Shown in pieces: positions 10,059 to 35,102 of a DNA stretch of 43,707 nucleotides. This stretch comes from a virus: the UHGV virus genome UHGV-0360526. One strand, given 5' to 3'. A program made the translations under genes and the position numbers. Within the stretch, counting starts at the first letter, position 1. Each line of letters starts with the position of its first letter. The notes below the pieces were generated by a model, which saw only the letters and a list, made by a program, of their open reading frames with translations, made no database searches and had not been told where the DNA came from.

Positions 10059-10104
10059 TCCTACCGCCCGATTCTATGGGCGGTAGGAGTTTTTATTTTT
10101 TTTT
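10059..10104 (+). terminator. rho-independent terminator
   Basis: Stem ctcctaccgccc-gattctat-gggcggtaggag followed by tttttatttttttttg. Confidence 0.75.
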
Positions 10105-10120
10105 GATCTGGGAGGTTTTA

Positions 10121-10681
10121 GTGACTACTTACGTACCTGATTTAAGTCTGGCCTCAGCCGAATTGGTGGTCGCTTTAATCAACCACGATAACGGTTCACG
10201 GTTGTCTCTAAGCGAAATCCGTATTAGCAACACTACGGCAAACCCGTCCCCGACCACGTCGCGTCGTAACACAATGACAGAGATTACAAAAATCAGGAAA
10301 CCTGATGGCGCTTCTGTGGTTGTTTATTACGACCGTTTGGATGCGGACGAAGTGTTAGCGTCTGAACCTATTTTGATTTCGTTAGACGGTACTGAAGACA
10401 ACCTTCGCGACATTTTAGGTGTTGTAAATGAATTCTGCGGAACGAACTTACAACCCGAGGATTTACGTGCTTCAGATATCACCTTAGGTAACGAACCCAT
10501 TGCTGTTAACGTTGCCGACGATTCTCCTGCGTGGATGAATGCGTTTATGGTAACGTTATTCGATACAACCGAACGAGCATTAGCAAACGAAGATGATGCG
10601 ATCTTCTGTATTGGTGATGATGCTGTTCTTACCTTTGAGGTTCCAGATGACGACTCAGTTGAAGAAAACCCGGCTACATGA
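10121..10681 (+). CDS. hypothetical protein carrying a C-terminal domain shared with the 644-aa protein at 16081
   Basis: Listed ORF starts at 10076 inside the terminator hairpin; GTG at 10121 preceded by RBS ggagg is a more plausible start; C-terminus (YYDRL..CGTNLQPEDL..DDAVLTF) aligns with C-terminus of ORF 16081-18015. Confidence 0.5.
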   Translation: MTTYVPDLSLASAELVVALINHDNGSRLSLSEIRISNTTANPSPTTSRRNTMTEITKIRKPDGASVVVYYDRLDADEVLASEPILISLDGTEDNLRDILGVVNEFCGTNLQPEDLRASDITLGNEPIAVNVADDSPAWMNAFMVTLFDTTERALANEDDAIFCIGDDAVLTFEVPDDDSVEENPAT

Positions 10682-13800: not shown

Positions 13801-15486
13801 CGAGACACTAACGATGCACCGTGGTCAGATTGGGCACAAGTTTATACTGCCCGTGACAGTATTCCTGGTGTAAATGCTACCGGTAATCAAGATACTACCG
13901 GCAACGCCGCTACCGCGACGAAACTGAAAACCGCTCGCAGAATCGGCGGCGTTACCTTTGACGGTACTGGGGATATCAATTTACCAGGGGTTAACCAGCA
14001 AGGCAACCAGAATACGACAGGTAATGCAGCAACCGCTACCAAGTTACAAACAGGACGTAGGATCGGTGGTGTGGTTTTCGATGGGACGAAAGACGTTAAT
14101 CTTCCTGGAGTAAACCAAGCCGGTAACCAACCGACTACGGGGAATGCTGCGACTGCGACTAAGCTCCAGACTGCACGAAATATAGGTGGCGTAGCTTTTG
14201 ATGGCACTAAGGACATCAATTTACCTGGCGTAAACCAGACGGGTAATCAGTCGACCACCGGAAACGCGGCCACTGCAACAAAGTTGCAAACTGCAAGAAC
14301 CATCAACGGTATTGCGTTTGACGGCACTAAAAACATCGAAATAACGGCTGAGAGTTTAAATCTTGGTCAAACTGTAGAATTGGCCGGTGGGTCATTGCAG
14401 AAGAAACAGAACGGTGCCGATATTCCAGATAAAAGGAAATTCTTACGAAATGTTGGTGCCCCGAACACAACAACCATATCTTTTAATGGTGGTGCCGGAT
14501 GGTTCAAACTGGCAACTGTAACGATGCCACAAGCCAGTTCCGTGGTTTACATAAGCATGATTGGCGGTGCAGGGTTTAACGTTGGTTCCCCGCATCAAGC
14601 GGGTATTTCTGAGCTGGTTCTGCGCGCCGGGAATGGAAATCCAAAAGGTATCACTGGTGCTTTATGGCGACTGACCTCAGTCGGCTTTACTAATTTTGCA
14701 TGGGTGAATACATCTGGTGACACCTACGATATTTATGTTGAAATAGGTAATTACGCCACGGGTGTTAACATTCAGTGGGATTACACCAGTAACGCCAGCG
14801 TAACGATCCATACAACGCCAAGTTATACGGCTAATAAACCAGCAGGACTAACAGACGGAAACGTCTATCTGATTTATAGCACACACAACAAACCTAACGC
14901 TGGTGACATCGGTGCATTACCGTCAGGGGGCGGTACTATAGGTGGCGATTTAACCGTTAACGGTAAATTGGTCACTAAGTACCCTGATTTTCGAATCGCT
15001 TACGGCAACTACGGCTTTATGTTACGTAACGATGGTGCCAATACCTATTTCTTAGTAACCGACGCCGGACAAGCTGCAACGGGTTCCTGGAACGGACTAC
15101 GTCCGTTGTATTTTAATAACGCTAACGGCCAAGTAACCTTTGGTCATAACGTTACTGGCAGCGGTAACGGTTCGTTTAACGACGTACAGATTCGTTCTGA
15201 CCGTCGTAACAAACGTAATCTGGTGAAACTGGATAAAGCTTTGGATCGGTTAGAGTTACTAACCGGTTATTTGTACGAAATTCAGCATCCGGATGACGGT
15301 TGGCAAACCTCTGTAGGTCTAATTGCTCAAGACGCATTAGAAGCGTTACCTGAACTTGTGTCTGAGGATGATGATGCCATTTCAGGCGAAAAACGTTTAC
15401 GTCTAAATTACAATGGTGTTATTGCGCTGTTAGTAGAGGGTATGAAGTCTCTTCGCCGAGAGCTTAAAGAGCTTAAGGAGAAATAA
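10888..15486 (+). CDS. long tail fibre protein with tandem fibre repeats and C-terminal intramolecular chaperone (peptidase S74-like) domain
   Basis: 1532 aa; Ala/Thr/Gln-rich coiled-coil-like N-terminal region; six ~40-aa repeats (GNQxTTGNAATATKLQTARxIGGVxFDGTxDINLPGVNQ); C-terminal SDRRNKRN...GLIAQD...LRLNYNGVIALLVEG resembles the autoproteolytic chaperone domain of phage fibres/endosialidases. Confidence 0.8.
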   Translation: MAKAVKKIRLHDLRPYTGDIGEGVLLFSKDERDYQLPVREIVADIDTVRNAVADAQTAAAKSQQSATEATQAKDLAEAAKQETDTLASTISEQAKTVATKTAEVSKKHAEVLAAKTAVDTVSQSVNEKAQAVATSEQSVTAAVADVTKKAETVTQKAGQVQQTATSIANTAASVEASKGAVEKVAAQVTKDKESSEGAATRSESAALRAEKIAAQGLIDASTTGKGIVKLNNTLTSESVTEAATPSTVKQLNDELQLKANKHSPNFTGKPTSPTPPKDSNDTSISTTAWVRAAIAELVGSSPETLDTLAELAEALGNDPNFATTITEKLAQKQPISPLLTAIAAVTSAANKLPYFTGANKVGLTDFTETARTLLAKGTTADIINFLGLKATVDKANGALQKNSNGADIPDKETFARNIGLSPDTYLRFRGEMPLDADINTFAPNTNYTGTWAKSTSTNASMAKHFPEDGAVGYLEVYKAGNYSGAQRFTCRNGNVYNRMLSGAWNGANGPWSPWRMVTTGVRPLSTSIDLNSLGGAEHMGNWRNSSSSLAVFSRHYPEEGGGAQGVLEVMEGGLFGRLQRYTTRRGTMYVRGLTATWDSSNPQWEDWIQVGYQTDGAFFKANFNDLVKPGRFSVTGEATNGPLTGSSGETILGVCEVTLRLDGTGVEQNYTTYGTGVETKGRKFQRIRTGNAWSDWREVFTSYSLPLVLGIGGERANVDPLDWQTYDFKPGELICTPLNTMKNIPAGMDWGVIDGNLVSILVGPSDGASSGRSMLVWRSTVSTANYRFFAVRIAGEKGSRTITPRQMPVLNAAHTWAEKQTFAKGLAGELTGNASTATKLKTARRIGGVAFDGSGDINLPGVNQQGNQNTTGNAGTATKLQTARNINGVRFDGSADININTLVGRGRVTALSGSNKGTPGIQMYEVYNNGYPTAYGNLLHLGGSTAVGEGELLIGWSGTSGAHAPVYIRSRRDTNDAPWSDWAQVYTARDSIPGVNATGNQDTTGNAATATKLKTARRIGGVTFDGTGDINLPGVNQQGNQNTTGNAATATKLQTGRRIGGVVFDGTKDVNLPGVNQAGNQPTTGNAATATKLQTARNIGGVAFDGTKDINLPGVNQTGNQSTTGNAATATKLQTARTINGIAFDGTKNIEITAESLNLGQTVELAGGSLQKKQNGADIPDKRKFLRNVGAPNTTTISFNGGAGWFKLATVTMPQASSVVYISMIGGAGFNVGSPHQAGISELVLRAGNGNPKGITGALWRLTSVGFTNFAWVNTSGDTYDIYVEIGNYATGVNIQWDYTSNASVTIHTTPSYTANKPAGLTDGNVYLIYSTHNKPNAGDIGALPSGGGTIGGDLTVNGKLVTKYPDFRIAYGNYGFMLRNDGANTYFLVTDAGQAATGSWNGLRPLYFNNANGQVTFGHNVTGSGNGSFNDVQIRSDRRNKRNLVKLDKALDRLELLTGYLYEIQHPDDGWQTSVGLIAQDALEALPELVSEDDDAISGEKRLRLNYNGVIALLVEGMKSLRRELKELKEK
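13381..14361 (+). repeat. in-frame tandem coding repeats (~120 nt / 40 aa) within the tail fibre gene
   Basis: Two copies at 13381-13590 and four at 13882-14361 encode GNQxTTGNAATATKLQTARxIGGVxFDGTxDINLPGVNQ; copies differ mainly at synonymous positions. Confidence 0.8.
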
Positions 15487-15489
15487 AAA

Positions 15490-15993
15490 ATGGGGGTAGC
15501 ATCTGGATGGGTCGGTTCTTCGGCCAAGAACGAAACGGGCGAACAATGGATGAGCGCTGCTGGTAGTAAATTAGGACTGGGTAGACCTTTTATGATGAGT
15601 CAAATGGTGGGAAGATCTATGGGCTGTAAAATTGCAACCGCTGCATATAGCGATTCTTTAGGTAAGAAATGGGGCGCGGTAGGACCAAGCTGGCCGTTAA
15701 ACCAGAAAAATCAGGGAACCATTCAAAACGCTGGTAACTGCGGGGTGGGAACTTTAGTAGGTATCGAGTTACAGTTAACGACGGTAGTTGCTAACGCAAA
15801 GCCTACTTTAGCGGTTTACTTACAAGGCGGCAGAACCTCTAACATTACCGTAAATTTAGGTGGCAACACCTGCGCGCTGACCTATCAGCAGGTTATTAAC
15901 GGACAGCATTATTACTGGACTAATAACATCAGCGCTGCGTTCCAAAACGTGATGAAATCAACAGGCGCACTACGTGATTTGAGAATTAGCTAA
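15490..15993 (+). CDS. hypothetical Gly-rich protein downstream of tail fibre (possible fibre accessory or adhesin)
   Basis: 167-aa ORF starting 4 nt after the fibre stop; Gly/Asn-rich; function inferred only from position. Confidence 0.4.
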   Translation: MGVASGWVGSSAKNETGEQWMSAAGSKLGLGRPFMMSQMVGRSMGCKIATAAYSDSLGKKWGAVGPSWPLNQKNQGTIQNAGNCGVGTLVGIELQLTTVVANAKPTLAVYLQGGRTSNITVNLGGNTCALTYQQVINGQHYYWTNNISAAFQNVMKSTGALRDLRIS

Positions 15994-16080: not shown

Positions 16081-18015
16081 ATGATGTTGGTGCGCGATAT
16101 TAAAGATTACACCGAACTAACAGCATACGCGTTAAATTCGTTGTTAACACTTGACAAACCAGAAATATTCGACGAATCCGTCACGATGACGGTAGACCAA
16201 GAAACGAACTATGATTACGTTGGTCAAGTTACTGGTCGTGTTTCTGTGGCTAGTCCCACTGAATATAAAATTGCGATGTATACCTATACAACGGGAGAGT
16301 ACGCGCAAGGTGAATCACCATTAAACGAATCAGGTGAGTTTAATTTTAAACGAACATGGCCGGGGACAAAACAATTTCGTTTAATTAGAATTGCTGATGG
16401 CAAATGGATTTCTACGTTAGAGTTCCCATTGTGCATACGTAGTTACCATATGCCAGAAAACGCGGACCCTGAAACGATCAGGATTATGAAAGATCGTTGT
16501 TATACTTACGATCAGGCTGTTGCTACTCTTGCATTAATGGCCTACGGTCATGAAAAGGTAGAACAGTTTGTAAAAGGTCTTTTAGCGCTGGTCAATGAAG
16601 ACGGTGGTGTTAAATTCTACGTAAACCGACTTTCGGCTAAATCTTCGCGAAATTATTACCGTATGGGCAACGTCGCGTGGGTACTTTACGCTTTAGCTTT
16701 TTATCTTGAAAAATTTCCTGCCGGAAATCTAGCGGCACAGGTTCATGAAAAATTAACACTTTCCTTAACCTGGCTGGAAACTTATAAGGTAACGCAGGAG
16801 ACAGATCGCCGCAAAGGTTTATATCTTGGTGGAAAGGGTCGTTTTGTTACTACCGAATCAGGCGAACGTGTTTTTGAAGAAGACTACGTTGCACCTTTTG
16901 CGGCTTTAGAACATCAGGTAGATATTTGGTTCCTGTTCGAATTACTAGGGCGCGTCGGTTTTGATGCATACCAACAAAAAGCAGCGGACTTCGGTAATAG
17001 AATAGTAGAAGCTTTTTGGATGGAAGACGAAGGACGTTTTCGTCAGGGTGTGAGAGAAACAGAAGATGATAACGCAGCTGCGTTAGATCAGTCCAGTTGG
17101 GGTGGGCTATTTGCGGCCAAATTTAAACCAGAGTACGCCGAACGTTGTCACGCTTTTATGGAGAAATTTCGTTCGGAAACCTCTGAGTGTCGTGGCTACA
17201 CACCATACAAAACCGAGTTTGGTTACCCTACTGCTAAAGAAGGGGTGTGGGTTGAAGGTGCCGCCGGTGTTGCGTTATTCGAACGTCAGTTAGGAAATGA
17301 TAAACGTGCTGTTGAGATCATTAACGACTTAGATGTTCTTTTATCAGAATACGGTTATCGTGATTCTTGCGATGATCCTACCTACGATACGCTGCCGCCG
17401 TGGTGGTCAACCACAAACACTGCATGGGTGCTTTTAGTCTGTAAGCCAAGTAATTTTTGGCTTGTAGATAAGCCTCCTTTAACGGAGAGATATAATCCGC
17501 AGAATAAATTTTTACCAGATATTTCATTAAACTCTTTAAATCTTGTAATTTCGTTAGTGAATCACGATTTAAAAACAGATTACACGGAGTCTGATGTTGA
17601 AATCAGCAAGATTTCACTTAGCACGGAAGAAAATCGTGACACAACAGCGATAATGGAAATAAAACGTCCTAATAAACGGTCGTTACAGATCTATTACAAC
17701 CGTTTAACCGCAGCGCGGTGGTTAAACCAGCAACCTATTCTGGTAAAGGTCACCGGTAACGGTTTTACTACACGCGATCTGATCGACGGAATTAACGCGG
17801 CTTGTGGTTGTAATTTACAACCCGACGATCTTACTGACGACACATTTACCGTAGGGAAAGACGCTGTAACGTTACAGGTTTCACCCAACTCGTTAGGTTA
17901 TAAAGGTCAATTCTCCGTTCTGGTTTTCGGTAACGATGAAGAAGCCGCTGTGGTAAAAGACAACGATTTAATCGTTACCGCAGATAACCGTGTCTTAACA
18001 TTCGGAGGTCACTAA
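16081..18015 (+). CDS. putative (alpha/alpha)6-barrel glycoside-hydrolase-like virion protein with C-terminal fibre-docking-like domain
   Basis: 644 aa; central region has repeated helix-pair signatures (YDQAVATLALMAYG, NVAWVLYALAFY, LDQSSWGGL, TNTAWVLLV) typical of six-hairpin glycosidases; C-terminus homologous to ORF 10121-10681; enzyme assignment is tentative. Confidence 0.35.
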   Translation: MMLVRDIKDYTELTAYALNSLLTLDKPEIFDESVTMTVDQETNYDYVGQVTGRVSVASPTEYKIAMYTYTTGEYAQGESPLNESGEFNFKRTWPGTKQFRLIRIADGKWISTLEFPLCIRSYHMPENADPETIRIMKDRCYTYDQAVATLALMAYGHEKVEQFVKGLLALVNEDGGVKFYVNRLSAKSSRNYYRMGNVAWVLYALAFYLEKFPAGNLAAQVHEKLTLSLTWLETYKVTQETDRRKGLYLGGKGRFVTTESGERVFEEDYVAPFAALEHQVDIWFLFELLGRVGFDAYQQKAADFGNRIVEAFWMEDEGRFRQGVRETEDDNAAALDQSSWGGLFAAKFKPEYAERCHAFMEKFRSETSECRGYTPYKTEFGYPTAKEGVWVEGAAGVALFERQLGNDKRAVEIINDLDVLLSEYGYRDSCDDPTYDTLPPWWSTTNTAWVLLVCKPSNFWLVDKPPLTERYNPQNKFLPDISLNSLNLVISLVNHDLKTDYTESDVEISKISLSTEENRDTTAIMEIKRPNKRSLQIYYNRLTAARWLNQQPILVKVTGNGFTTRDLIDGINAACGCNLQPDDLTDDTFTVGKDAVTLQVSPNSLGYKGQFSVLVFGNDEEAAVVKDNDLIVTADNRVLTFGGH

Positions 18016-23489: not shown

Positions 23490-24266
23490 ATGAAAACTGT
23501 TGAGTTTAAAAATAGCAGTCTTTGGGCATACACGCACATCATTACGAGTTTCCTGAAAAACGTTACTTCGCACCTCGCTTATCAGTTTTGTGGAAATGAG
23601 CTCACTATCGGTGGTTTTAACGAGGAAGAATTAAAACGTGCAAAAGAGTTCATTGACGATGTTCTTCATGGCGACGCGACGTGTTTAGTTGCGAGTTACG
23701 TTGCTAAAGACAAAGGAAGATTAAACATCATGGCAATCTTCCGGGCGCTCTCCGAAAAAGTATACGAAGTTGAGAAGGTTAGTCATGGCGTTTATATTGT
23801 TTACTTTAAACGTTCAGCGGAGAAAAACACTGATAAACTTCTGGAGTATTTCGACTGTAACCCAGGGGAAGGTATGGATGTCTATACGCTCGGTTATGAT
23901 GGGGTACCTCACCGGAATAACCTTATTCGTATTGACGAACCTTTTTCAGTCAATGATAACTCCACGCCTATAGAGATGGTTCTGGTACACAAAGATCGTT
24001 TCGCGCATTACGATTCTGATACTGTTCAACGTGTCCTGAACAACGTTAATATTCAGTTTTCACAAACCGAGCACCTGGTACGTGCTTGTGTTAGGTCTAA
24101 TGGCACAACATCGTTTTTCCTCGAACGTCAAATCGTTTGGCAGACTTATCTGGCTTTGATGGAAGAACTCGATAGGATTGAACCAGTTCAGGTTGGTACA
24201 AATTGCTTATATTGGATAAAAACAAAGGGGTTCAAGAATGAAGACGCTCAATTCAGATTTGCGTGA
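23490..24266 (+). CDS. hypothetical protein
   Basis: 258-aa ORF. Confidence 0.55.
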   Translation: MKTVEFKNSSLWAYTHIITSFLKNVTSHLAYQFCGNELTIGGFNEEELKRAKEFIDDVLHGDATCLVASYVAKDKGRLNIMAIFRALSEKVYEVEKVSHGVYIVYFKRSAEKNTDKLLEYFDCNPGEGMDVYTLGYDGVPHRNNLIRIDEPFSVNDNSTPIEMVLVHKDRFAHYDSDTVQRVLNNVNIQFSQTEHLVRACVRSNGTTSFFLERQIVWQTYLALMEELDRIEPVQVGTNCLYWIKTKGFKNEDAQFRFA

Positions 24267-24666
24267 TTATATCCGTAAGTACCCAGCCAGTATTCCTGTA
24301 CTGGCATCGCTTACACTTTCAGGTACTGACGTTAACATCTTAACGGTGGAACAGTTCCACGAGATAATAAAAACCGCTTATAACTCCATTACCGCAACGT
24401 CAGTACGTAAACGTTGCGATTATCCCGACGGGGATTTCGGCACCGAGATGTTTACCGATTACGCGGTTGCGTTTCTGTTAGGACGACACTGTCTCGATAA
24501 ACTTAACACTGCTGTAGAAGGGGAAACAGTGACGGAAATAGTTAATGCTTGGCAGCAACGTATTCTGAACGACCCTTACTGCCGCCAGGCGTTAAAACGT
24601 ATGTCCACAACGGCGATTACAAACGACCAGCGTGCTTTAGAGTTCTTTAAGCACAACTACAGCTAA
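24238..24666 (+). CDS. hypothetical protein, paralog of ORF 25886-26317
   Basis: 142 aa; LNSDLRDYIRKYPASIPVLASL and C-terminal NDPYCRQALKRMS..RALEFFKHN align with the 25886 product. Confidence 0.55.
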   Translation: MKTLNSDLRDYIRKYPASIPVLASLTLSGTDVNILTVEQFHEIIKTAYNSITATSVRKRCDYPDGDFGTEMFTDYAVAFLLGRHCLDKLNTAVEGETVTEIVNAWQQRILNDPYCRQALKRMSTTAITNDQRALEFFKHNYS

Positions 24667-25885: not shown

Positions 25886-26317
25886 ATGTTTTTCGTATTA
25901 AATGATGAATTTCGTAACTACATTCGTAACAACCCTATTGCTCTGGGCGTTTTAGCAGGTTTCTGTCGTCCAAATACTGATTTCGATTTAGTTAAGTTAG
26001 AAGAATATCAGGAAATTGTGAATACTAACTACTTGCACATCTGTAGCTGGGGTAAACGTCCTCGCGAAGAGTACCCTATCGGTGAGTTAGGTGACAGTAT
26101 GCATCGTGACCAGAATCTGATGCACGAATTCGTTGAATACACACTGGAAAATCTTAACTATCCGCTTCTGGTCGACACTGTACCAGAAATGGTTGACGAA
26201 TGGTTAAGTCGTGTTTACAACGATCCTACTGCCAGCACTCTACTGAGTCAGATGTCGCAAACTTCTCGTGATATCGACACCCGGACCCTGATGTACTTAG
26301 CACACAACGTTCGTTAA
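25886..26317 (+). CDS. hypothetical protein, paralog of ORF 24238-24666
   Basis: 143 aa; RBS aaaggag; aligned motifs with the 24238 product. Confidence 0.55.
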   Translation: MFFVLNDEFRNYIRNNPIALGVLAGFCRPNTDFDLVKLEEYQEIVNTNYLHICSWGKRPREEYPIGELGDSMHRDQNLMHEFVEYTLENLNYPLLVDTVPEMVDEWLSRVYNDPTASTLLSQMSQTSRDIDTRTLMYLAHNVR

Positions 26318-26324
26318 TCTCACT

Positions 26325-26380
26325 CCGCTATAGGCTTCGGTCTATAGCGGAATTAATTTTCTTTCCCTTTTCTTTTTTTG
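26325..26380 (+). terminator. rho-independent terminator
   Basis: Stem ccgctatag-gcttcgg-tctatagcgg followed by long T-rich run. Confidence 0.75.
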
Positions 26381-26485
26381 TTATTTTGACGCTACGTTAC
26401 TTACCTTCTACTCGGCTATTCCTATGCTGGCTGAGGGATGTAAAACGACCTCTTAAACCTTTTTTACTTATTGTGAGTTAACGCG

Positions 26486-27334
26486 ATGTCTCTTACGTCA
26501 AAACAGAAACTGCTAAAACTCATCAACACTGAAAACAATATTGTTCCGCCATTGACCTTCAGTGATGTTGATATCGGCGAACCTACTGGTACTGGGGTTG
26601 ATACCCAGGTGGTTCTGACTTCTAAACTCAAAGGCGATGAGTCTACTACTTTAACCGTGACTTACCATCGTCGTAATTTGCCCGAATACCTAACAGGTGA
26701 GTTGGTATTCGGTAACGACGGTGTTGTAACTGCTGCAGATTTGCTTAATGCGATCAACGCAAAATACGATTTAAATATTCTGCCGTCGGATATCATTGAT
26801 GCGAAAGTTGAAGGTGAAACCCATCAGCTTACCGCTAACGAGAAATCCTACGAATGGTGTGGCGAGGTGACACTCACGCTACGCGACCCTATTGATCTGG
26901 CTAAATTGTTACCTGTTACTCAATTAGAAAACCTGGTAGAGTATCCGTCCACTAAGAAAGGTAACGCAGCGGTTTATTCTTATCCAATTGACTTCACCGC
27001 AGAAAAAGATTACCTCGATCCGATTACCATTAACGACACCGTAGACTTAGTAGAGTTAGCCACTAAACTGACTAACGTCGTTGATGAGAAATGGGTAAGT
27101 GTACCTAAGAACACTGCTAATAACCTGTACGGTGCTAAGGTTATCTACGACGGCCCTACCGCAGGTTTCGAAGGTGCAAATACGAAGTACACGCGTGTGC
27201 TGGTACTCGCCCTAAGCGGTATGTGTTCTAACCTGACCGGTAAACTGTTAATTCACTTTAACGGAACCGATCGTCCGAAGTCGAAGATTGAATTAGCCAA
27301 GACTAATTCGGTCTTACCGGGATTCTTAGATTAA
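26486..27334 (+). CDS. hypothetical protein, member 1 of a four-gene paralog family
   Basis: 282 aa; N-terminal pattern (L..LI.......TF.DVD.G.P......T.VVLT) shared with ORFs 27348, 30488, 31098. Confidence 0.55.
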   Translation: MSLTSKQKLLKLINTENNIVPPLTFSDVDIGEPTGTGVDTQVVLTSKLKGDESTTLTVTYHRRNLPEYLTGELVFGNDGVVTAADLLNAINAKYDLNILPSDIIDAKVEGETHQLTANEKSYEWCGEVTLTLRDPIDLAKLLPVTQLENLVEYPSTKKGNAAVYSYPIDFTAEKDYLDPITINDTVDLVELATKLTNVVDEKWVSVPKNTANNLYGAKVIYDGPTAGFEGANTKYTRVLVLALSGMCSNLTGKLLIHFNGTDRPKSKIELAKTNSVLPGFLD

Positions 27335-27347
27335 GAGGATTACAGTA

Positions 27348-27824
27348 ATGACCAGTCAAGAAACTATCTTCGATCTTATTAAAAAGGCTAACCCAGACGC
27401 TGAGTTCGACACCGCCAAAGTCACATTGGGCGAGCCCGTCGTAAGTACCGGTACGTACAACACCGAAATTACGGTTGTTCCGGTTAAGAATCTCGGTTAT
27501 GTTAATAAGCAAACGTTCCAGTATAACCGCATTGATGCAGGTTTGTATTTCCTCAACGTATTGCCGAAACTGTTAGTTGAAACAGCCGCCACAACTGCGG
27601 ACCTGTTGCCTGTAGTTAACGAGCAGTATGGCTTAACCCTTACCGAAGATGACGTATGGGTAGAGCAGGTTGGTCAGTTACCGCTGGACGGTAGTGCAAT
27701 CGAGCACGGTATTTTCTTCCGTCCCGAGTGTTTAACCTGGGTCGGTGGTTTTACAGTGCGGGTTGCGCGTAAACCGGCTGCTGAAACACGGCCAGCCAAG
27801 CCATCACGCGCTAAGAAGAAATAA
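27348..27824 (+). CDS. hypothetical protein, member 2 of the paralog family (basic C-terminal tail)
   Basis: 158 aa; RBS agagga; N-terminal family pattern; C-terminus RKPAAETRPAKPSRAKKK. Confidence 0.55.
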   Translation: MTSQETIFDLIKKANPDAEFDTAKVTLGEPVVSTGTYNTEITVVPVKNLGYVNKQTFQYNRIDAGLYFLNVLPKLLVETAATTADLLPVVNEQYGLTLTEDDVWVEQVGQLPLDGSAIEHGIFFRPECLTWVGGFTVRVARKPAAETRPAKPSRAKKK

Positions 27825-27828
27825 CGAC

Positions 27829-27862
27829 AGGGTGGGGTAATCCCACCCTCTTTTCTTTTTTT
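27829..27862 (+). terminator. rho-independent terminator
   Basis: Stem agggtgggg-taat-cccaccct followed by cttttctttttttg. Confidence 0.8.
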
Positions 27863-27885
27863 GTGTAAAAGAGGAGTTAAACAAA

Positions 27886-28476
27886 ATGGCCGAACGTTGG
27901 ACTAAAGAAGGTATTATTGGATCAAAAACAGATTTAGAGGGTGGGTACGTTAATGACCCCGACGATAAAGGTGGGGAAACCTGTCACGGGGTAACACTGA
28001 CAACCGCACGCGAATACGGGTATAAAGGAAGAATGAAAGATCTGACCCGTGCGCAAGCGTTTGATATTTACGATCGCGGTTGGTGGAAGAAACTTAAACT
28101 CGATGAGATTTTCGCTATCTCGCCCTTACTCGCAGACCGGATGTTTGATTTTGCTATTAACTCTGGCCGCGTTAACTGTGTGAAATCGTTACAACGTATT
28201 CTCAACGTTTTAAATAACGAAGGGAGACTTTACGCAGATATTGACACCGACGGGGGCATGGGGCCTAAAACGCTAGGTGCCCTGAATGCTTATCTGAATT
28301 ACCGTAAAGGTGAGGGGTTAGGCATCTTAATCTTTGCGTTAATCTCACACCAGGTAACCTACTACACAGAAATCTCCGAAAAACGTAAGAAGAATGAAAA
28401 ATTCGCTTACGGCTGGTACGGACGCGTGTACAGGGAAATGCCGGATTATGTAGTGAAGGCGGGGTTAGTAAAATGA
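27886..28476 (+). CDS. GH108-type muramidase (endolysin-like) with C-terminal peptidoglycan-binding region
   Basis: 196 aa; N-terminal LEGGYVNDPDDKGGETCHGVT matches the glycoside hydrolase family 108 signature; C-terminal DGGMGPKTLGALNAYL resembles the associated PG-binding domain. Confidence 0.8.
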   Translation: MAERWTKEGIIGSKTDLEGGYVNDPDDKGGETCHGVTLTTAREYGYKGRMKDLTRAQAFDIYDRGWWKKLKLDEIFAISPLLADRMFDFAINSGRVNCVKSLQRILNVLNNEGRLYADIDTDGGMGPKTLGALNAYLNYRKGEGLGILIFALISHQVTYYTEISEKRKKNEKFAYGWYGRVYREMPDYVVKAGLVK

Positions 28477-28577
28477 ACTGGTTTGCTAAACTCTTAGCAC
28501 TATTGTGGAAAGCGTTAACGTCTGGACGGAAACGTAAAGACGAAAAACGCGGGTACGAATTTTTCTGGTTTCTTTAA
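28473..28577 (+). CDS. small ORF (34 aa) overlapping muramidase stop; possible small lysis-associated peptide
   Basis: ATG 28473 forms ATGA overlap with the muramidase stop; MNWFAKLLALLWKALTSGRKRKDEKRGYEFFWFL is amphipathic/hydrophobic; too short for the ORF track. Confidence 0.25.
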   Translation: MNWFAKLLALLWKALTSGRKRKDEKRGYEFFWFL

Positions 28578-28592
28578 GGAAAGGTGTGGGTA

Positions 28593-29258
28593 ATGGAAAA
28601 GCTTCAATATAAACGTTTAGACAATAAGTGGTTTGTATTAACGGAGGATTACCATTATCCGTTTACGTTACGCGAGATTTATCACGACCACGTACACTTA
28701 GACCGTGCGGTTTATTTAACGGGTGTATTGCCTGACACACAACTGTGGTTAACCGCACCGAAAGGGTTCGTTACCGATTTAGCGTCAATTCCTGAACACC
28801 TCCAGGGAATTTTCCATCCTGACGGACCGTGGGCACCTGCGGCCTGCATTCACGACCTACTTTATCAAAAATGTAACACGGAGCGGAGCTATCCCATGAC
28901 ACCGGGCGGTAACGTTTCGCGTATTATCGATAAAGAGTTCTCTGACTTAACATTCCTGCGTATTATGCAGTCGTTGGAAATCTCGCCTTATATCTGCCAA
29001 ACATTTTATAAGGCCGTTGTTGAATTCGGCTGGGATTCCTACGTAGATCCTAATGCAGAACCATCCTACAACACTAACGCGTTTCGTACGTTAGATTACA
29101 ATCGAAACTATTTATTCGTTCGCGAGTTTAAGGAGCCTGCAATTCCTGACCACGAACGTATTGATATCACCACAGAACAACCCGTTAATGTCAAATACCT
29201 GAACATCAAACGTGCTTTTCTGTCTGGGAGGGAAGATGTTTCATCCAAATCCGAGTAA
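28593..29258 (+). CDS. hypothetical protein (possibly DUF1353-like)
   Basis: Listed ORF 28584-29258; ATG 28593 follows RBS aaggaaagg; motif FVTDLASIPEHLQ reminds me of DUF1353 but not verified. Confidence 0.4.
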   Translation: MEKLQYKRLDNKWFVLTEDYHYPFTLREIYHDHVHLDRAVYLTGVLPDTQLWLTAPKGFVTDLASIPEHLQGIFHPDGPWAPAACIHDLLYQKCNTERSYPMTPGGNVSRIIDKEFSDLTFLRIMQSLEISPYICQTFYKAVVEFGWDSYVDPNAEPSYNTNAFRTLDYNRNYLFVREFKEPAIPDHERIDITTEQPVNVKYLNIKRAFLSGREDVSSKSE

Positions 29259-29751
29259 CTTTAAACTCAAAGAGTTAGTACCACAATCGTACATCGCCAA
29301 ATACGGTGATTCTGCAATTCGGTTTATGAACCCGTTGTTAATGATTTCGCTACAGCAGATTCGTAACCGTTTCGGTAGAATGGTGATTAACTCAACCGCC
29401 GCACAACAACGCGGACTAAGAACCTTAGATTTCTTTATTAATCAAGAAAAGCCTAAGGGCGGCAGTTATAAACAACGTGCGTTACAGCTTTACGCCGATT
29501 CAGGAAGTCAACACAAATTCGGTAACGCAATTGATGCAACGTTGTTGGATAGCACCGTAAAACAGGTTCACGACTATATCGCTGCTAACCCTGACGAGTT
29601 TCCGTTCATTCACTTTATTGAATGTGACATCAGTTGGTTACACATCGACGTTCGTAACCAGCCTAACATTACTTTCTGGTCACCAAATCGAGGTACTGTG
29701 AAGGTTGTTAAGCAAAAACCAATCGATTGGAGCGCCTTAGTCGAGATTTAA
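29236..29751 (+). CDS. peptidase M15-like (zinc D-Ala-D-Ala carboxypeptidase fold) cell-wall peptidase
   Basis: SQHKFGNAIDA (H-x6-D zinc ligands) and downstream WLHIDVR match the M15 family signature; ATG 29236 with RBS ggaggg. Confidence 0.6.
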   Translation: MFHPNPSNFKLKELVPQSYIAKYGDSAIRFMNPLLMISLQQIRNRFGRMVINSTAAQQRGLRTLDFFINQEKPKGGSYKQRALQLYADSGSQHKFGNAIDATLLDSTVKQVHDYIAANPDEFPFIHFIECDISWLHIDVRNQPNITFWSPNRGTVKVVKQKPIDWSALVEI

Positions 29752-29834
29752 TTATTTCTAAGGTGTTTATACCTTATTTTGTATAAAGGCGCTTAGAATG
29801 CGTTTTACGCACGATTTGGCGGTTAAAATGAATA

Positions 29835-29875
29835 TACCCTACTCCCGATAAGGAGTAGGGTAGTTTTTATTATTC
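29835..29875. terminator. bidirectional terminator between convergent genes
   Basis: Stem taccctactcc-cgataa-ggagtagggta flanked by A/T runs on both sides; lies between plus-strand stop 29751 and minus-strand stop 29870. Confidence 0.7.
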
Positions 29876-30352
29876 CGCAGGATGGAGCATTGTTCCAGTG
29901 TCAGGCGCTACACCTTCTATACAGCGGAAGAACGTAATGCCTTTACCATCGCCCGTTTTATATTCTAAAGTAGAATACGCAAAAGTTGGTGTTTTTGAAA
30001 GTAAACCATTCACACGGTAGTAACGTTGTCCTGTGATAGGATCGATATTCCCATTAACTTTACCTAATAAATCTTTATAAAGTTGGGGCGACTCAATCTT
30101 ACCATTTGGCCAAGTGGCTACCCAGTTAGCACCAGTATCGACTACGGTTACTGAACCCAACATGAGGTTAGTCGAATTGACGACAGGTTTATAATTTACA
30201 AAATCTTGCTCTACACCCATACAGGTGTAAATAACCATGTCGTGTGGCTCTACGGGTACAGTCGAGAATTGACCGTTAGCGGTGGGTTGTAGGGCACATC
30301 CTGCTAATGAAAAAACACCAACCATAGCGATAAGAAAACGTTTTAGCATGTT
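29870..30352 (-). CDS. lipoprotein (signal peptide with lipobox LAGC), possible superinfection-exclusion or receptor-masking protein
   Basis: Listed ORF to 30409; ATG at 30352 with RBS aaggtga gives MLKRFLIAMVGVFSLAGCALQ, a classic lipoprotein signal; function inferred from context only. Confidence 0.6.
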   Translation of the reverse strand, partial: NMLKRFLIAMVGVFSLAGCALQPTANGQFSTVPVEPHDMVIYTCMGVEQDFVNYKPVVNSTNLMLGSVTVVDTGANWVATWPNGKIESPQLYKDLLGKVNGNIDPITGQRYYRVNGLLSKTPTFAYSTLEYKTGDGKGITFFRCIEGVAPDTGTMLHPAE

Positions 30353-30434
30353 TTCACCTTCTATAAAAAAGTTAAAAATAATAATTTTACAGACGACCCT
30401 TACTGCCATCTGTCATAACTATTAAAACCACTTC

Positions 30435-30440
30435 TATAAT
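30435..30440 (+). promoter_or_regulatory. candidate sigma70-like -10 box (TATAAT)
   Basis: Perfect TATAAT about 47 nt upstream of ATG 30488 in the divergent intergenic region; -35 match is poor. Confidence 0.25.
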
Positions 30441-30487
30441 CCGAACAATACTATGCAATCCACCCTGCCACACACGAGGTAAAAACG

Positions 30488-31033
30488 ATGGCTAAAGCTT
30501 TCAATCTGCAGCTCATTGAAGCTGTTAAAGCTAAAAACCCTGAAACTGCTTCTAAACTGACCGTAAATGATGTCGATTTCGGGGCCGTAGAAGCTTACAC
30601 CCCGACCGGTAAAAGCGACGCCCGTAACACTAAAGTTGTCCTGACAGCGAAAGAAAGCAGCGCTAACTTCACCGGTAATAAAGAATTTCATTATATCCGT
30701 CTGGCTTCCGCTAACCTGATCGGTGCCAAAGCTTACCAGCAGGAAGGTAGCCTCGAACTGGAAAACGCTGCCATTGTAGCCAAACTGAACGAAGAGATGG
30801 TTACTAAAGGTTATGTAGATGACGCGTTTGCAGAAGGCGAACTCACTATTGAGAAAACTGACGGCGAAAGCGGTGCTAAAGTTTACACTGTCAAAGTAAA
30901 CGATGCGCACATCAAATTCTTAGCCGGTACCATTGCCACCTTCACCTATACCAACCCGGTTCCTCCGAAGACAGCTCTGAGCGGGCTGGAAGGTGAACTC
31001 GATGGTTTCACCGCACCGGGTATCGGGGGCTAA
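30488..31033 (+). CDS. hypothetical protein, member 3 of the paralog family
   Basis: 181 aa; RBS gaggt; C-terminal GELDGFTAPG shared with member 4. Confidence 0.6.
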   Translation: MAKAFNLQLIEAVKAKNPETASKLTVNDVDFGAVEAYTPTGKSDARNTKVVLTAKESSANFTGNKEFHYIRLASANLIGAKAYQQEGSLELENAAIVAKLNEEMVTKGYVDDAFAEGELTIEKTDGESGAKVYTVKVNDAHIKFLAGTIATFTYTNPVPPKTALSGLEGELDGFTAPGIGG

Positions 31034-31037
31034 TTAA

Positions 31038-31070
31038 ATCGGGGGGGGGTAACCTCCCCGATATTTCTTT
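31038..31070 (+). terminator. hairpin containing G9 tract (weak terminator)
   Basis: atcggggggggg-taacct-ccccgat followed by atttcttt. Confidence 0.4.
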
Positions 31071-31097
31071 AACTCGTACTATTAAGGATTTAAGATA

Positions 31098-31628
31098 ATG
31101 GCTGCTACTAACCAGATGATGTTGGTCGCGCTTTATAATGCTGCTAACACTGAGCTACCACATCAGGTTACTGATAAAGAAGTGTCCTTTGGTCTCCCTA
31201 CTGCGCTGGAAGGCGAAAGTAAGAATACCAAAGTTACCATGACTGCACTGCCAGGTTCTGAGAATTTCAAAGGCGCTATCGAACTGCATTACGATCGTCT
31301 GGAACCGGGAGTTGTAGGACGTATTGAACTAACTGACGATCTGTCTCGTTGGGAAGATCAAAACGAATTGCGCGCATGGTTACAATATTACATCAACAAA
31401 GTAAAACCTGACGATGCTATCGCACCAGCTGACGTTTCTTATTCTACCGAAGACCAGAAAGACGAACATGAAAACGTCACTCTGCGTACGGTAACGTGCA
31501 CCGTTACTGAAAAGAACCTCCGTTATAAACCGGGCGTAATGGCAACTTTCGTAATTACACCGAAAGTTGTTGATAATCGTATTGACCTGGCCACCACCAA
31601 CGGTGAGCTGGACGGTTTTACGTCCTAA
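31098..31628 (+). CDS. hypothetical protein, member 4 of the paralog family
   Basis: 176 aa; RBS aagga; C-terminal NGELDGFTS. Confidence 0.6.
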   Translation: MAATNQMMLVALYNAANTELPHQVTDKEVSFGLPTALEGESKNTKVTMTALPGSENFKGAIELHYDRLEPGVVGRIELTDDLSRWEDQNELRAWLQYYINKVKPDDAIAPADVSYSTEDQKDEHENVTLRTVTCTVTEKNLRYKPGVMATFVITPKVVDNRIDLATTNGELDGFTS

Positions 31629-31641
31629 GAAAAAATAAAAA

Positions 31642-31682
31642 TACCTACCTCCTATTACGGGAGGTAGGTATACTTTTTTTTC
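31642..31682. terminator. bidirectional terminator between convergent genes
   Basis: Stem tacctacctcc-tattacg-ggaggtaggta with A-run upstream and T-run downstream; between plus-strand stop 31628 and minus-strand stop 31691. Confidence 0.8.
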
Positions 31683-32362: not shown

Positions 32363-32910
32363 TCATCGTCTCCTTTAATCAACCCTAATTCGATTAACAA
32401 TTCAAAATCGATATGACGGAATCTTGTGTCGAAGTCCGATTCCCAATCGATACGGATACCCTGGCATTCTTCTGGCGTTAGCTCAGGAAAAATCACGGTA
32501 TTAAATTTCTCTCGCTCATCGTAAAACCCATCAATCGGTGAGTTCGGGTTACGTGTTGCGAAGATAGTAATGCCGGGGAAGGACAATGCCAACACAGTGA
32601 TAGATTCTGCGCTGGGTTCGCTTAAAGAGCGGCGTAGAAACGCAATTTTGTGACGTGGGAAATCCAATACCCGTTCTTCAAACCCTGGGTTACGTTTTTC
32701 AATTTCCGCGACCGACAGGTCAGTAAGTTCGGTGCAGTACATTGGGATGATTACAGTCACGCCGTGACGAATCAGTAAGCGTTTTACGTCATCGGTAAAA
32801 TCTTCACCGTTAATCACCACATAACAACCGAATAGCTTACTGTTTTCCAGAAACTTATCCAGAAGTCGAATTCTACGCTTCGTAATATTGTTGATCAGAA
32901 TTGGTTTCAT
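32338..32910 (-). CDS. hypothetical protein
   Basis: 190-aa ORF; start overlaps the 3' end of the radical SAM gene. Confidence 0.5.
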   Translation of the reverse strand: MKPILINNITKRRIRLLDKFLENSKLFGCYVVINGEDFTDDVKRLLIRHGVTVIIPMYCTELTDLSVAEIEKRNPGFEERVLDFPRHKIAFLRRSLSEPSAESITVLALSFPGITIFATRNPNSPIDGFYDEREKFNTVIFPELTPEECQGIRIDWESDFDTRFRHIDFELLIELGLIKGDDECLLLVKA

Positions 32911-34195
32911 CTTTGGCTTCTCTTAATAATTTTTCCTTTTGGGCACGTTCACGAACACAGCGTGGGCAATAACACATGCTCGTGTCGTGGAACGCTTTTG
33001 CTGACGTCGTACCCATCTTCTGTTTCCAGTATTCCGCCACCATCAGTTTCGCTGTCGTCCAGCCACACTGACGACGTTCAGCGTGATACGCTTTACGGTC
33101 TTCTAACGTTCCTTCCCCGTTCTCGTAAGAAGCCGCCGCACAGCTACCACAAGCGTGTTTCATCGGACAACCTAAACAGGTCTCTGGGTAGTTGGTATAT
33201 TGCGTTTGAATCTCTTCTAACAATTTACCGTTGTCCAGACTGACGAATTCCCGACCTACCAACTCAAACACCGCAGAACGCGACGTTACCGTTGACATAA
33301 AGCGGTTACAGCCAAAGATCTTACGGTCAAATCCTAAGCACGTCATGTGGGTTAACGTCCCGCAGAACGGACGTAAACGTTCTGGGTTCAACCGTACAGT
33401 GTCATTATACAGTAACTGGTCACGCCAGTTCGGTTCCCAAATCGTATCGAAATCCAACCCTTCTGGAATGATGTGCGATAAGATATTACGTGGATTGGTG
33501 TGTAATCCTTTTTCAACCCAATAATCTATCACATCCATCATCTGTAAAGCGATTGATGTCGCCATGCTACGCGGCATAACGTCTTCGAAGGTTACGTTCC
33601 CAGAAATTGTCCCACCGCCAGTAATGTCAATTAATGACTTCATCCCCGCAGCATAGAACGGCAGTGTTTCTAACGTAAAGGTCGCTTTTACGCCGAGTTC
33701 TGCAATACCAACCTCTTTTAAGTAATTATAGCCACGTACTGCGGCTTCGTAAGAACCCTGACGCGTCGTTGTGAAGATACGATAGCGGTCATGGGATTCA
33801 GGTAAACCATCAATCGAAACCCCAACCGAAAGTTTGTCTTTCCAACGTTCTACAATCTCACGGTTCAACGGACGATCTAACAGCGTTCCGTTCGTGGAGA
33901 TACTAAACATAAACGGTCGGTTGTGTTCTTTACACAACTGCTCAGCGGTTTCAAACGCAGCCAGCAGCAGTTTAGGCTGCATGAACGGTTCACCACCGAT
34001 AATGTCGATAATAACTTCGACATTCGGTTCGTTTTTATCACGTTCAAAACAGGCGTGTAAGAAATCAACAATGTCAGCCGCTTTGTTGTTACGTGGGTAC
34101 TTACGTTCGTAGCAATATTCGCAGTCCAGGTTACACGAAAGGTTGGTTACGATCTGATACGTTAACTGCTTAGGGAATTCATTTACTTGACTCAT
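32873..34195 (-). CDS. radical SAM enzyme with C-terminal SPASM-like domain (peptide-maturase-like)
   Basis: 440 aa; CNLDCEYC (CxxxCxxC) near N-terminus, GGEP SAM-binding motif, C-terminal Cys clusters CGTLTHMTCLGFDRKIFGCNRF and CLGCPMKHACGSCAAAS. Confidence 0.8.
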   Translation of the reverse strand: MSQVNEFPKQLTYQIVTNLSCNLDCEYCYERKYPRNNKAADIVDFLHACFERDKNEPNVEVIIDIIGGEPFMQPKLLLAAFETAEQLCKEHNRPFMFSISTNGTLLDRPLNREIVERWKDKLSVGVSIDGLPESHDRYRIFTTTRQGSYEAAVRGYNYLKEVGIAELGVKATFTLETLPFYAAGMKSLIDITGGGTISGNVTFEDVMPRSMATSIALQMMDVIDYWVEKGLHTNPRNILSHIIPEGLDFDTIWEPNWRDQLLYNDTVRLNPERLRPFCGTLTHMTCLGFDRKIFGCNRFMSTVTSRSAVFELVGREFVSLDNGKLLEEIQTQYTNYPETCLGCPMKHACGSCAAASYENGEGTLEDRKAYHAERRQCGWTTAKLMVAEYWKQKMGTTSAKAFHDTSMCYCPRCVRERAQKEKLLREAKDETNSDQQYYEA

Positions 34196-35102
34196 TTGCC
34201 GCCCCTCTATTACGTCCTGCCATCACTACGCGACGAATATATTCGTACGCCTCTACACCGATAGAGAAGGCCAGTTGGTTACATCCCGATTCCAGAACGT
34301 TAGGTGCATTCTGGAGTTGGTGCTCACCACCGTCTGCATTAATCCAAAGACTTTCGCTGCAAACGTTACACCCTTCTTCAAACACTTTACTTACTGTAAA
34401 GCCGCATTCACGACCATTTACTACATTCAGTCGTTCAATGTTGTCCTGAACCTGATAGTAGCCGTAAATAAAGTTCATGACGTGGTCAGGCGATAAAGGT
34501 TTTGGCATTTTCGCGTCTAAGAGTAACGTCATTGCACGGAAACCGTAATGGTAAATCGCGCTGTGCAGCTGAATAATATCTTCGTGCCAGCGTTTGTCCC
34601 CTAAACGGTCCCGTGTCAGGACACCCCAAGTCTGGACATTATCCAGCTCGTAGATCGTTTCCAGTGCTTCGTAACAGCCTTCGTCAATAAAGCGCATAAA
34701 CGGGCGCTCAGACGACTTAAACCCATCGATGCTAACGTAGACATTGTCAAACTGTTTTAGCAACGGGAGATGCGATTTACGCATCTTTAAGCCATTGGTA
34801 TACAACTGGTGTTTGAGTTCTGGACGAATCACTTTTAATTCGTCAACAAACGCCTCAATTTTACGGGTTGCCAGTAATGGCTCACCACCCGTCCACTGAA
34901 TTTCGGTAATGGTTGGATTAGCTTCCAGCGCTTCCAAAATTCGCTCACGTTGAAACTCTCGCGGAGAATCTTCACGATTCATGTAATAGGCTCCACCGCA
35001 GAAGCTACAATCCAGGTTACACTTGGACGTAGCGACTACGGACAATACGGTGGGTTTATCGTATAAACGATTCGATAACCTTGGTTCTGCATTGGTTGTC
35101 AT
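34179..35102 (-). CDS. radical SAM enzyme (second, shorter paralog-like)
   Basis: 307 aa; CNLDCSFC (CxxxCxxC), GGEPLL motif, C-terminal Cys residues ECG..GCNVCSES..GCNQ; 17-nt overlap with downstream rSAM gene. Confidence 0.75.
   Translation of the reverse strand: MTTNAEPRLSNRLYDKPTVLSVVATSKCNLDCSFCGGAYYMNREDSPREFQRERILEALEANPTITEIQWTGGEPLLATRKIEAFVDELKVIRPELKHQLYTNGLKMRKSHLPLLKQFDNVYVSIDGFKSSERPFMRFIDEGCYEALETIYELDNVQTWGVLTRDRLGDKRWHEDIIQLHSAIYHYGFRAMTLLLDAKMPKPLSPDHVMNFIYGYYQVQDNIERLNVVNGRECGFTVSKVFEEGCNVCSESLWINADGGEHQLQNAPNVLESGCNQLAFSIGVEAYEYIRRVVMAGRNRGAANESSK

Follow-up and report, generated by a model that had tools for sequence, protein, structure and literature searches.

DUF7941 paralogs of a phiKZ-like jumbo phage as probable subunits and connectors of baseplate-anchored filaments

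Four open reading frames (ORFs) of the virus genome UHGV-0360526, here called m1, m2, m3, and m4 and located between positions 26486 and 31628 of the 43,707-nucleotide stretch analyzed (the window), are judged from their sequences to be paralogous DUF7941 virion proteins and to form a real paralog family. All four were found on the plus strand exactly where the first-pass annotation of this DNA had placed them (Table 1), and its description of them as diversified paralogs coding for virion proteins in a structural, or late, region is correct. With a probability of roughly two in three, m1–m4 would build filaments anchored on the peripheral baseplate, serving as their subunits and connectors. 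The present analysis itself covers homology, predicted fold, synteny, and motif conservation, while the baseplate location of phiKZ gp127 and the filaments formed by Goslar gp22 are taken from the literature.

Paralogy and predicted fold

The shared N-terminal pattern from which the family was first recognized was recovered in a four-way alignment, with N17, V28, G31, T40, Y60, and R62 identical in all four proteins. In pairwise BLASTP comparisons, m3 and m4 were the sole strong pair (E = 6e-16, 29% identity), and the matches of m1 to m2 (E = 0.005) and of m1 to m3 (E = 0.002) were marginal; BLASTP alone was rejected as proof joining the upstream pair (m1 and m2) to the downstream pair (m3 and m4), being too weak, and profile methods were required. 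The scores against Pfam DUF7941 (PF25613) all lie above the gathering cut-off of 27 bits, with 179.9 bits for m1 (match over residues 2–259), 103.1 bits for m2 (residues 2–143), 31.4 bits for m3, and 39.0 bits for m4 (residues 4–147). Furthermore, a profile of m3 and m4 orthologs was aligned by hhalign with a profile of m1, m2, SPN3US, Goslar gp22, and phiKZ gp126/gp127 at 97.2% probability (E = 4.4e-11, 156 columns). Because all four proteins exceed the Pfam cut-off and hhalign joins both pairs, family membership is settled; that is, formal similarity among the four is significant by profile methods, though mostly marginal by pairwise BLASTP. In addition, m1 matches phrog_1037, described as 'virion structural protein' (E = 1e-62), and m4 matches phrog_4862 (E = 9e-35).

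Structure prediction gave a confident model for m3 (mean predicted local distance difference test score, pLDDT, of 92), with the element order helix, four strands, helix, three strands, and extended tail. The m1 model is confident for residues 1–134 only (pLDDT 70–86), and follows the same element order. For the predicted folds of both m1 and m3, phiKZ gp127 is the top match in the PDB, and both superpose on the modeled gp127 N-terminal domain: the top Foldseek match of the m1 model is 9xqd_0 (PHIKZ127; E = 2.4e-5), which the m1 sequence also matches (E = 1e-7), and the m3–gp127 match was missed by Foldseek by itself. Apart from gp127, the four had no fold match, and PDB sequence searches with m1–m4 gave no match other than PHIKZ127; the four-member alignment, used as a query against PDB sequences, returned nothing, and designer-PPR matches of the m3 profile in the PDB were dismissed as spurious. 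On these models, the members are predicted to carry a DUF7941 N-terminal alpha/beta module of the gp127-type fold. An immunoglobulin-like (Ig-like) or beta-sandwich fold, which had been put forward for checking, is not what was predicted: the fold is mixed alpha/beta, with two helices packed on a mixed sheet, and has no significant Ig-like match.

The C-terminal docking-type motif

A second shared element, of the form [ILV]-[DE]-L-A-x(4-9)-L-x-G-[FL], follows the module in m1, m3, and m4. The GELDGFT terminus reported earlier for m3 and m4 is real and belongs to this longer motif, which reads ALSGLEGELDGF in m3 and IDLATTNGELDGF in m4, with the related IELAKTNSVLPGF at the extreme C-terminus of m1. 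The strict pattern is found within the window in m1, m3, and m4 only, each time at the extreme C-terminus. m1 is unusual in having the motif twice, the second copy sitting in a 23-amino-acid (aa) extension that is present in the lineage relatives P0193, P0212, and P0216 and absent from SPN3US, Goslar gp22, and phiKZ gp127. The m3/m4 tail is placed by hhalign on the m1 linker IDLAKLLPVTQLENLV, and the same linker element occurs at the same place in Goslar gp22 and phiKZ gp127; hence, the tail of the short forms corresponds to the linker element of the full-length forms. The Lys/Arg-rich tail described for m2 is also real.

Conservation of the motif extends beyond the window. Residues 159–176 are the most conserved segment among m3 orthologs (mean pairwise identity 0.85), and the motif lies within the last 36 residues in 33 of 59 short-form representatives among the best matches, whereas 1 of 186 control windows taken from other parts of these proteins carried it, and shuffled tails gave 1.3 ± 1.1 hits. 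The m4 motif also ends many unrelated short-form family members. The GELDGFT-type terminus is, as far as these alignments indicate, a family-wide C-terminal signature. In m1, m3, and m4 alike there is a conserved, predicted docking peptide that aligns with the linker of gp22 and gp127. Being equivalent to the full-length linker, this L-x-G-F peptide is the obvious candidate for the subunit-to-subunit docking element.

Comparison with phiKZ, Goslar, and SPN3US

The phiKZ structural atlas places gp127 in the outer part of the peripheral baseplate, where the gp139-dimer band forming each spoke ends (PMC13250141; PDB 9xqd). The decoration role proposed in the first-pass annotation, if meant in the sense of the capsid, is not supported, given this position of the only solved relative. 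More broadly, it is very improbable that the four are capsid decoration, internal head, or ejected proteins. PHROG does place phrog_1037 and phrog_2935 under 'head and packaging', and large head paralog families are carried by phiKZ-like phages (PMC5105663); however, the PHROG category is only a label, the family being described as 'virion structural protein', the homolog of solved position belongs to the baseplate, the fold is not of the Ig-like decoration type, and a separate group of small upstream genes seems to make up the head paralog family of SPN3US. Whether the SPN3US DUF7941 orthologs belong to the head or the tail is not stated in the main text of PMC5105663.

The DUF7941 family has been described as chimallivirus-specific, with ten members in Goslar, of which gp22 and gp23 were estimated at ~580 and ~2140 copies per virion, respectively, and purified gp22 was seen to form filaments by negative-stain electron microscopy (bioRxiv 10.64898/2026.04.21.720040). 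In AlphaFold predictions from the same study, the linker (together with the C-terminal domain) docks on the N-terminal domain of the next subunit; a gp126–gp127 dimer was also fitted into unassigned phiKZ density, and a baseplate-anchored 'DUF7941 fibre cloud' for host finding was proposed (bioRxiv 10.64898/2026.04.21.720040).

The proteins of the window resemble those of Goslar in several respects. Over 232 residues, m1 aligns with gp22 at 29% identity (E = 5e-14), and the two share the layout of module, linker, and C-terminal domain; m3 matches gp23 (E = 2e-5), these two being of similar length (181 vs. 180 aa) and sharing the ending 'PK..L..L....DGF..P'. In both phages, DUF7941 genes adjoin a GH108/ZliS-type endolysin. 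The differences are that identity is only 28–29%, that gp22 is without the 23-aa tail and second motif of m1, and that the window has two gp23-like paralogs (m3 and m4) side by side. With respect to phiKZ, gp127 and gp126 both belong to DUF7941 (97.5 and 36.6 bits, respectively) and form an adjacent pair of full-length and module-only proteins, like m1 and m2; on the other hand, identity is 14–26%, gp126 is without the basic tail, and there is no clear counterpart of m3 and m4 in phiKZ, with gp143 a weak DUF7941 match (18 bits). The closest isolated-phage homolog of m1 is SPN3US YP_009153432 (Seoulvirus), with 44.5% identity over 92% of the length, and it likewise lies downstream of a run of small paralogous genes. 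It differs in being without the C-terminal extension and in its downstream neighbors, which are a long row of larger virion structural genes and not a lysis block.

The phiKZ gp131 family (gp131 and gp133–135) is similar in consisting of baseplate-periphery paralogs with a common N-terminal attachment domain and varied C-terminal domains. The N-termini of these proteins, which are fiber bases, were considered as the same module and rejected, since gp131, gp133, gp134, and gp135 are all without a DUF7941 match.

Much of this is already known: Pfam includes the family, the position of a relative in the baseplate has been solved, and a filament model appeared in a 2026 preprint. The four ORFs are therefore ordinary further members, and the understanding of phage tails is unchanged by their description, which adds a DUF7941 example from Seoul-like jumbo phages persisting in Salmonella, E. 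coli, and Shigella isolates.

Proposed assembly of the filaments

By analogy with gp22/gp23 and gp126/gp127, we infer a docking polarity, a role for each member, and host searching as the purpose. The N-terminal module (~135–155 aa) would be the 'acceptor' and the C-terminal or linker peptide the 'donor', with the donor peptide of one subunit docking on the acceptor of the next to give head-to-tail chains at the outer spoke tips. m1, of the gp127/gp22 type, would anchor at the spoke tip via its N-terminal module and would probably start the chain, with its linker and C-terminal domain, plus a second tail in this lineage, available to other modules. m3 and m4, of the gp23 type, would polymerize head to tail via their terminal peptides and so be the repeating subunits of the filament, and m2, of the gp126 type, an acceptor-only form with a basic tail, would cap the chain. 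Two fiber-linked DUF7941 modules, described below, may tie fiber or enzyme domains into the same network. The locus would then hold one protein with two donors, one with an acceptor only, and two with a single donor each, a natural set suited to testing chain initiation, elongation, branching, and capping.

Five points weigh against this scheme. In the phiKZ map, the N-terminal domain of gp127 alone was modeled, at ~4.4 Å and by docking of a predicted structure. The filament model comes from one preprint, with negative stain of one protein and AlphaFold. In pairwise comparison, m2 is not significantly similar to phiKZ gp126 or to Goslar gp23, so that the m2–gp126 correspondence rests on architecture and position. 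The C-terminal domain of m1 was poorly predicted (pLDDT < 50), and is not modellable because its homologs are 78–93% identical and the alignment is shallow. Finally, the canonical motif was not found by regular-expression search in m2 or in the two fiber-linked modules.

The main rival to filament formation is that the four proteins are fixed, low-copy bricks of the peripheral baseplate (the star-lobe), without extended filaments or host searching. The only structure-based placement, which is of one gp127 per star lobe in phiKZ, agrees with such a role, as do the apparent end of the phiKZ chain at the gp127–gp126 dimer and the lack of a donor peptide in m2, as in gp126. Nevertheless, we regard it as unlikely: the copy numbers estimated for Goslar gp22 and gp23 run from hundreds to thousands per virion, and gp22 polymerizes in vitro; m3 and m4 are gp23-like, with terminators of their own and a strongly conserved donor tail; and the family has tandem arrays of up to eight modules.

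An elaboration of the filament reading is a branched network of mixed subunits, in which the double donor m1 would be a branch point, m2 a basic cap, and the hypervariable m3 the exposed bulk of the filament. This is offered tentatively and is more probably wrong than right. If true, the rapid diversification of m3 would mean that the filament subunit itself helps to determine adsorption or host range, or comes under host or immune pressure.

Further DUF7941 modules in the window

The family was first described as having four members; the paralogy holds and the count does not, as the window carries six DUF7941 modules, and the family thus occurs as several paralogs in this chimallivirus genome. 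A hidden Markov model built from the members and their orthologs matched ORF 10076-10681 (E = 2.6e-10), which was absent from the training set. This fifth protein scores 70 bits against Pfam DUF7941, and its start is more likely the GTG at 10121, which is preceded by a terminator hairpin as well as by a ribosome-binding site (GGGAGG). The sixth module scores 56.5 bits over residues 482–620 of a 644-aa protein, residues 8–467 of which match phrog_13714, 'tail fiber protein' (E = 6e-181). The fifth protein and sixth module are 34% identical (E = 3e-31). No further DUF7941 copy was found in a six-frame scan of the window. The position of these two modules, one adjoining a fiber gene and the other fused, suggests that the same connector also ties fiber or enzyme domains into the assembly.

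Positions 16081-17520 (plus strand) encode the N-terminal 480 residues of the 644-aa fusion. This part has no sequence relative in Pfam, NCBIfam, or the PDB, and could be an uncharacterized fiber or depolymerase domain. Between the two modules, at 10888-15993 (plus strand), lie parts of a T4-type long tail fiber within a phiKZ-like phage: the 1532-aa fiber protein has Gp34_trimer, Phage_fiber_2, and Peptidase_S74 chaperone domains, and a 167-aa protein carrying a Gp38_N adhesin domain comes after it. The fiber module is swapped in relatives, one of which (L007) has two gp38-like genes and a stand-alone 170-aa DUF7941 protein, and another of which (L004) has a 710-aa protein and DUF4376.

Relatives, diversification, and receptor binding

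Based on its matches, the window is assigned to a phiKZ-like (Chimalliviridae, Seoul-like) jumbo phage. The window does not include chimallin itself, for which no check was made. The closest isolated phages by m1 are SPN3US and Erwinia jumbo phages (~44–46% amino-acid identity), with CR5, Goslar, and phiKZ giving more distant matches. No close nucleotide relative was found by megablast in the phage collection, in which the best match had only 74% identity over 600 bp. Orthologs in the same gene order are found in 220–228 kb contigs of many Salmonella, E. coli, and Shigella isolate assemblies and of metagenomes, and also in a circular 221,873-bp 'plasmid' (NZ_CP173450.1) of the complete genome of urinary E. 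coli 98232, with 85% nucleotide identity over 26408-31621. The lineage matches the reported 'Seoul-like persistent jumbo phages' (bioRxiv 10.1101/2024.12.31.630880; PMC12768965).

A profile search of 1.84 billion representative proteins returned 2133 DUF7941 family members, some with two, three, or as many as eight modules in tandem on one polypeptide and others fused to Ig, SPRY, and beta-propeller domains. Such arrays and fusions fit a chainable connector module able to carry binding domains.

Among the related phages, m3 is the most variable gene of the region. Compared with four related contigs, it is 57–76% identical, with m4 at 88–92%, the peptidase encoded between the two pairs at 96–98%, DUF4376 at 97% in three of the four, and m1 and m2 intermediate at 78–91%. 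The variation of m3 is concentrated in residues 33–46, 73–95, and 119–140, where loop identity is 0.42–0.51. That m3 diversifies much faster than its neighbors is a testable lead.

This variability bears on another reading, that the four are themselves receptor-binding or host-range proteins, with variable surface loops, especially those of m3, touching the host surface. The diversification of m3 relative to its flanks (88–98%) and the focus of its variation on those three segments would be expected from such contact, and the family is fused elsewhere to binding domains and linked in the window to tail-fiber genes. We nonetheless consider it quite improbable, as there is no recognizable binding or enzymatic domain in the four and gp127 is their sole fold match; m1, m2, and m4 are not unusually variable; and the window already has dedicated adhesins, namely a T4-like long fiber and a gp38-like adhesin. 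The earlier suggestion of accessory receptor-binding proteins comes near the current proposal of baseplate-anchored host-finding filaments, and falls short in that the four proteins, having no recognizable binding domain, look like filament or connector subunits, not adhesins.

Genomic setting

The coordinates of the features discussed are collected in Table 1. Terminator-like hairpins followed by T-runs are more numerous in the region than in shuffled sequences (14 sites vs. 6.6 ± 2.4). Each pair of family genes had been described as insulated by terminators; the flanking hairpins are indeed present, but m3 and m4 do not form one insulated pair, and are instead separate transcription units because a hairpin lies between them.

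Table 1. Positions of the DUF7941 genes, their motifs, and neighboring features in the window.
Feature	Coordinates	Strand	Remarks
Fifth DUF7941 protein	10121-10681	+	186 aa; GTG start; directly upstream of 1532-aa long tail-fiber gene
Sixth DUF7941 module	17521-18015	+	C-terminal domain, residues 481-644 of 644-aa ORF 16081-18015
Terminator-like hairpin	26324-26351		Upstream of m1
m1 (member 1)	26486-27334	+	282 aa; full-length DUF7941; N-terminal module ~1-134, linker ~135-160, C-terminal globular domain to ~259, lineage-specific 23-aa tail
m1 linker motif DLAKLLPVTQLENL	26894-26935	+	Residues 137-150; presumed docking peptide; regular-expression match
m1 second motif copy ELAKTNSVLPGF	27290-27325	+	Residues 269-280; in C-terminal extension
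m2 (member 2)	27348-27824	+	158 aa; N-terminal module only, then Pro/Ala/Lys/Arg-rich basic tail
Terminator-like hairpin	27829-27849	+	After m2
Intervening block	27886-29751	+	Pfam/PHROG matches; context, outside the family
GH108 muramidase	27886-28476	+
34-aa ORF	28473-28577	+
DUF1353 protein	28593-29258	+
M15-like peptidase	29236-29751	+
Terminator-like hairpin	29835-29862		After peptidase gene
Lipoprotein gene	29870-30349	-	Signal peptide MLKRFLIAMVGVFSLAGC; phrog_9559; context, outside the family
m3 (member 3)	30488-31033	+	181 aa; module and C-terminal docking-type tail
m3 tail motif ALSGLEGELDGF	30974-31009	+	Residues 163-174
Terminator-like hairpin	31038-31062	+	Between m3 and m4
m4 (member 4)	31098-31628	+	176 aa; module and C-terminal docking-type tail
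m4 tail motif DLATTNGELDGF	31584-31619	+	Residues 163-174
Bidirectional terminator-like hairpin	31641-31671	.	After m4

The description of the family as flanking a lysis block holds for position, and a functional sandwich is not indicated; what is seen instead is synteny conserved in Goslar and phiKZ. DUF7941 genes adjoin an endolysin gene in Goslar (gp22, gp23, and gp24), in phiKZ (gp143 and gp144), and in this window, and the endolysins differ in type across these phages. The gene order of full form, short form, and endolysin is common to the window and Goslar. That m1–m4 are lysis accessory proteins (holin, spanin, or regulators) flanking the muramidase/peptidase block is scarcely credible: against their adjacency to the GH108 muramidase and M15-like peptidase genes, and the retention of the DUF7941–endolysin adjacency in Goslar and phiKZ, stand the lack of transmembrane segments and lipoboxes in all four, the nature of family members as abundant virion proteins, and the terminator-like hairpins separating m1–m4 from the lysis genes.

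The intervening block has the same gene order in related contigs, and may be a genuine lysis cassette or, alternatively, encode wall-degrading proteins that are associated with the virion. The gene for the DUF1353 protein (PHROG label 'tail assembly chaperone') overlaps that for the 171-aa LAS/M15-like peptidase, which matches phrog_894, 'endolysin', and has the motif SQHKFGNAID...WLHID. The 34-aa ORF, MNWFAKLLALLWKALTSGRKRKDEKRGYEFFWFL, overlaps the muramidase stop codon (ATGA), and is 94–97% conserved and gene-called in related contigs. Its product combines a hydrophobic helix at the N-terminus with a basic central part, and may be a small membrane-active lysis partner; a tiny phiKZ ORF, gp144.1, likewise lies directly after the endolysin. 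The lipoprotein gene is convergent with the DUF1353 and peptidase genes, with a bidirectional terminator in common; its lipobox is LAGC, and its orthologs are 159–160 aa long.

A second paralog pair lies upstream of m1, at 24238-24666 and 25886-26317 (plus strand), encoding proteins of 142 and 143 aa that both match phrog_8484. In SPN3US, a run of small genes occupies this position and may represent the reported '17-member head paralog family' (PMC5105663). Downstream of the DUF4376 gene, at 32873-35102 on the minus strand, two radical SAM genes (440 and 307 aa) stand side by side; they are 100% identical in three related contigs and 70–85% identical in a fourth.

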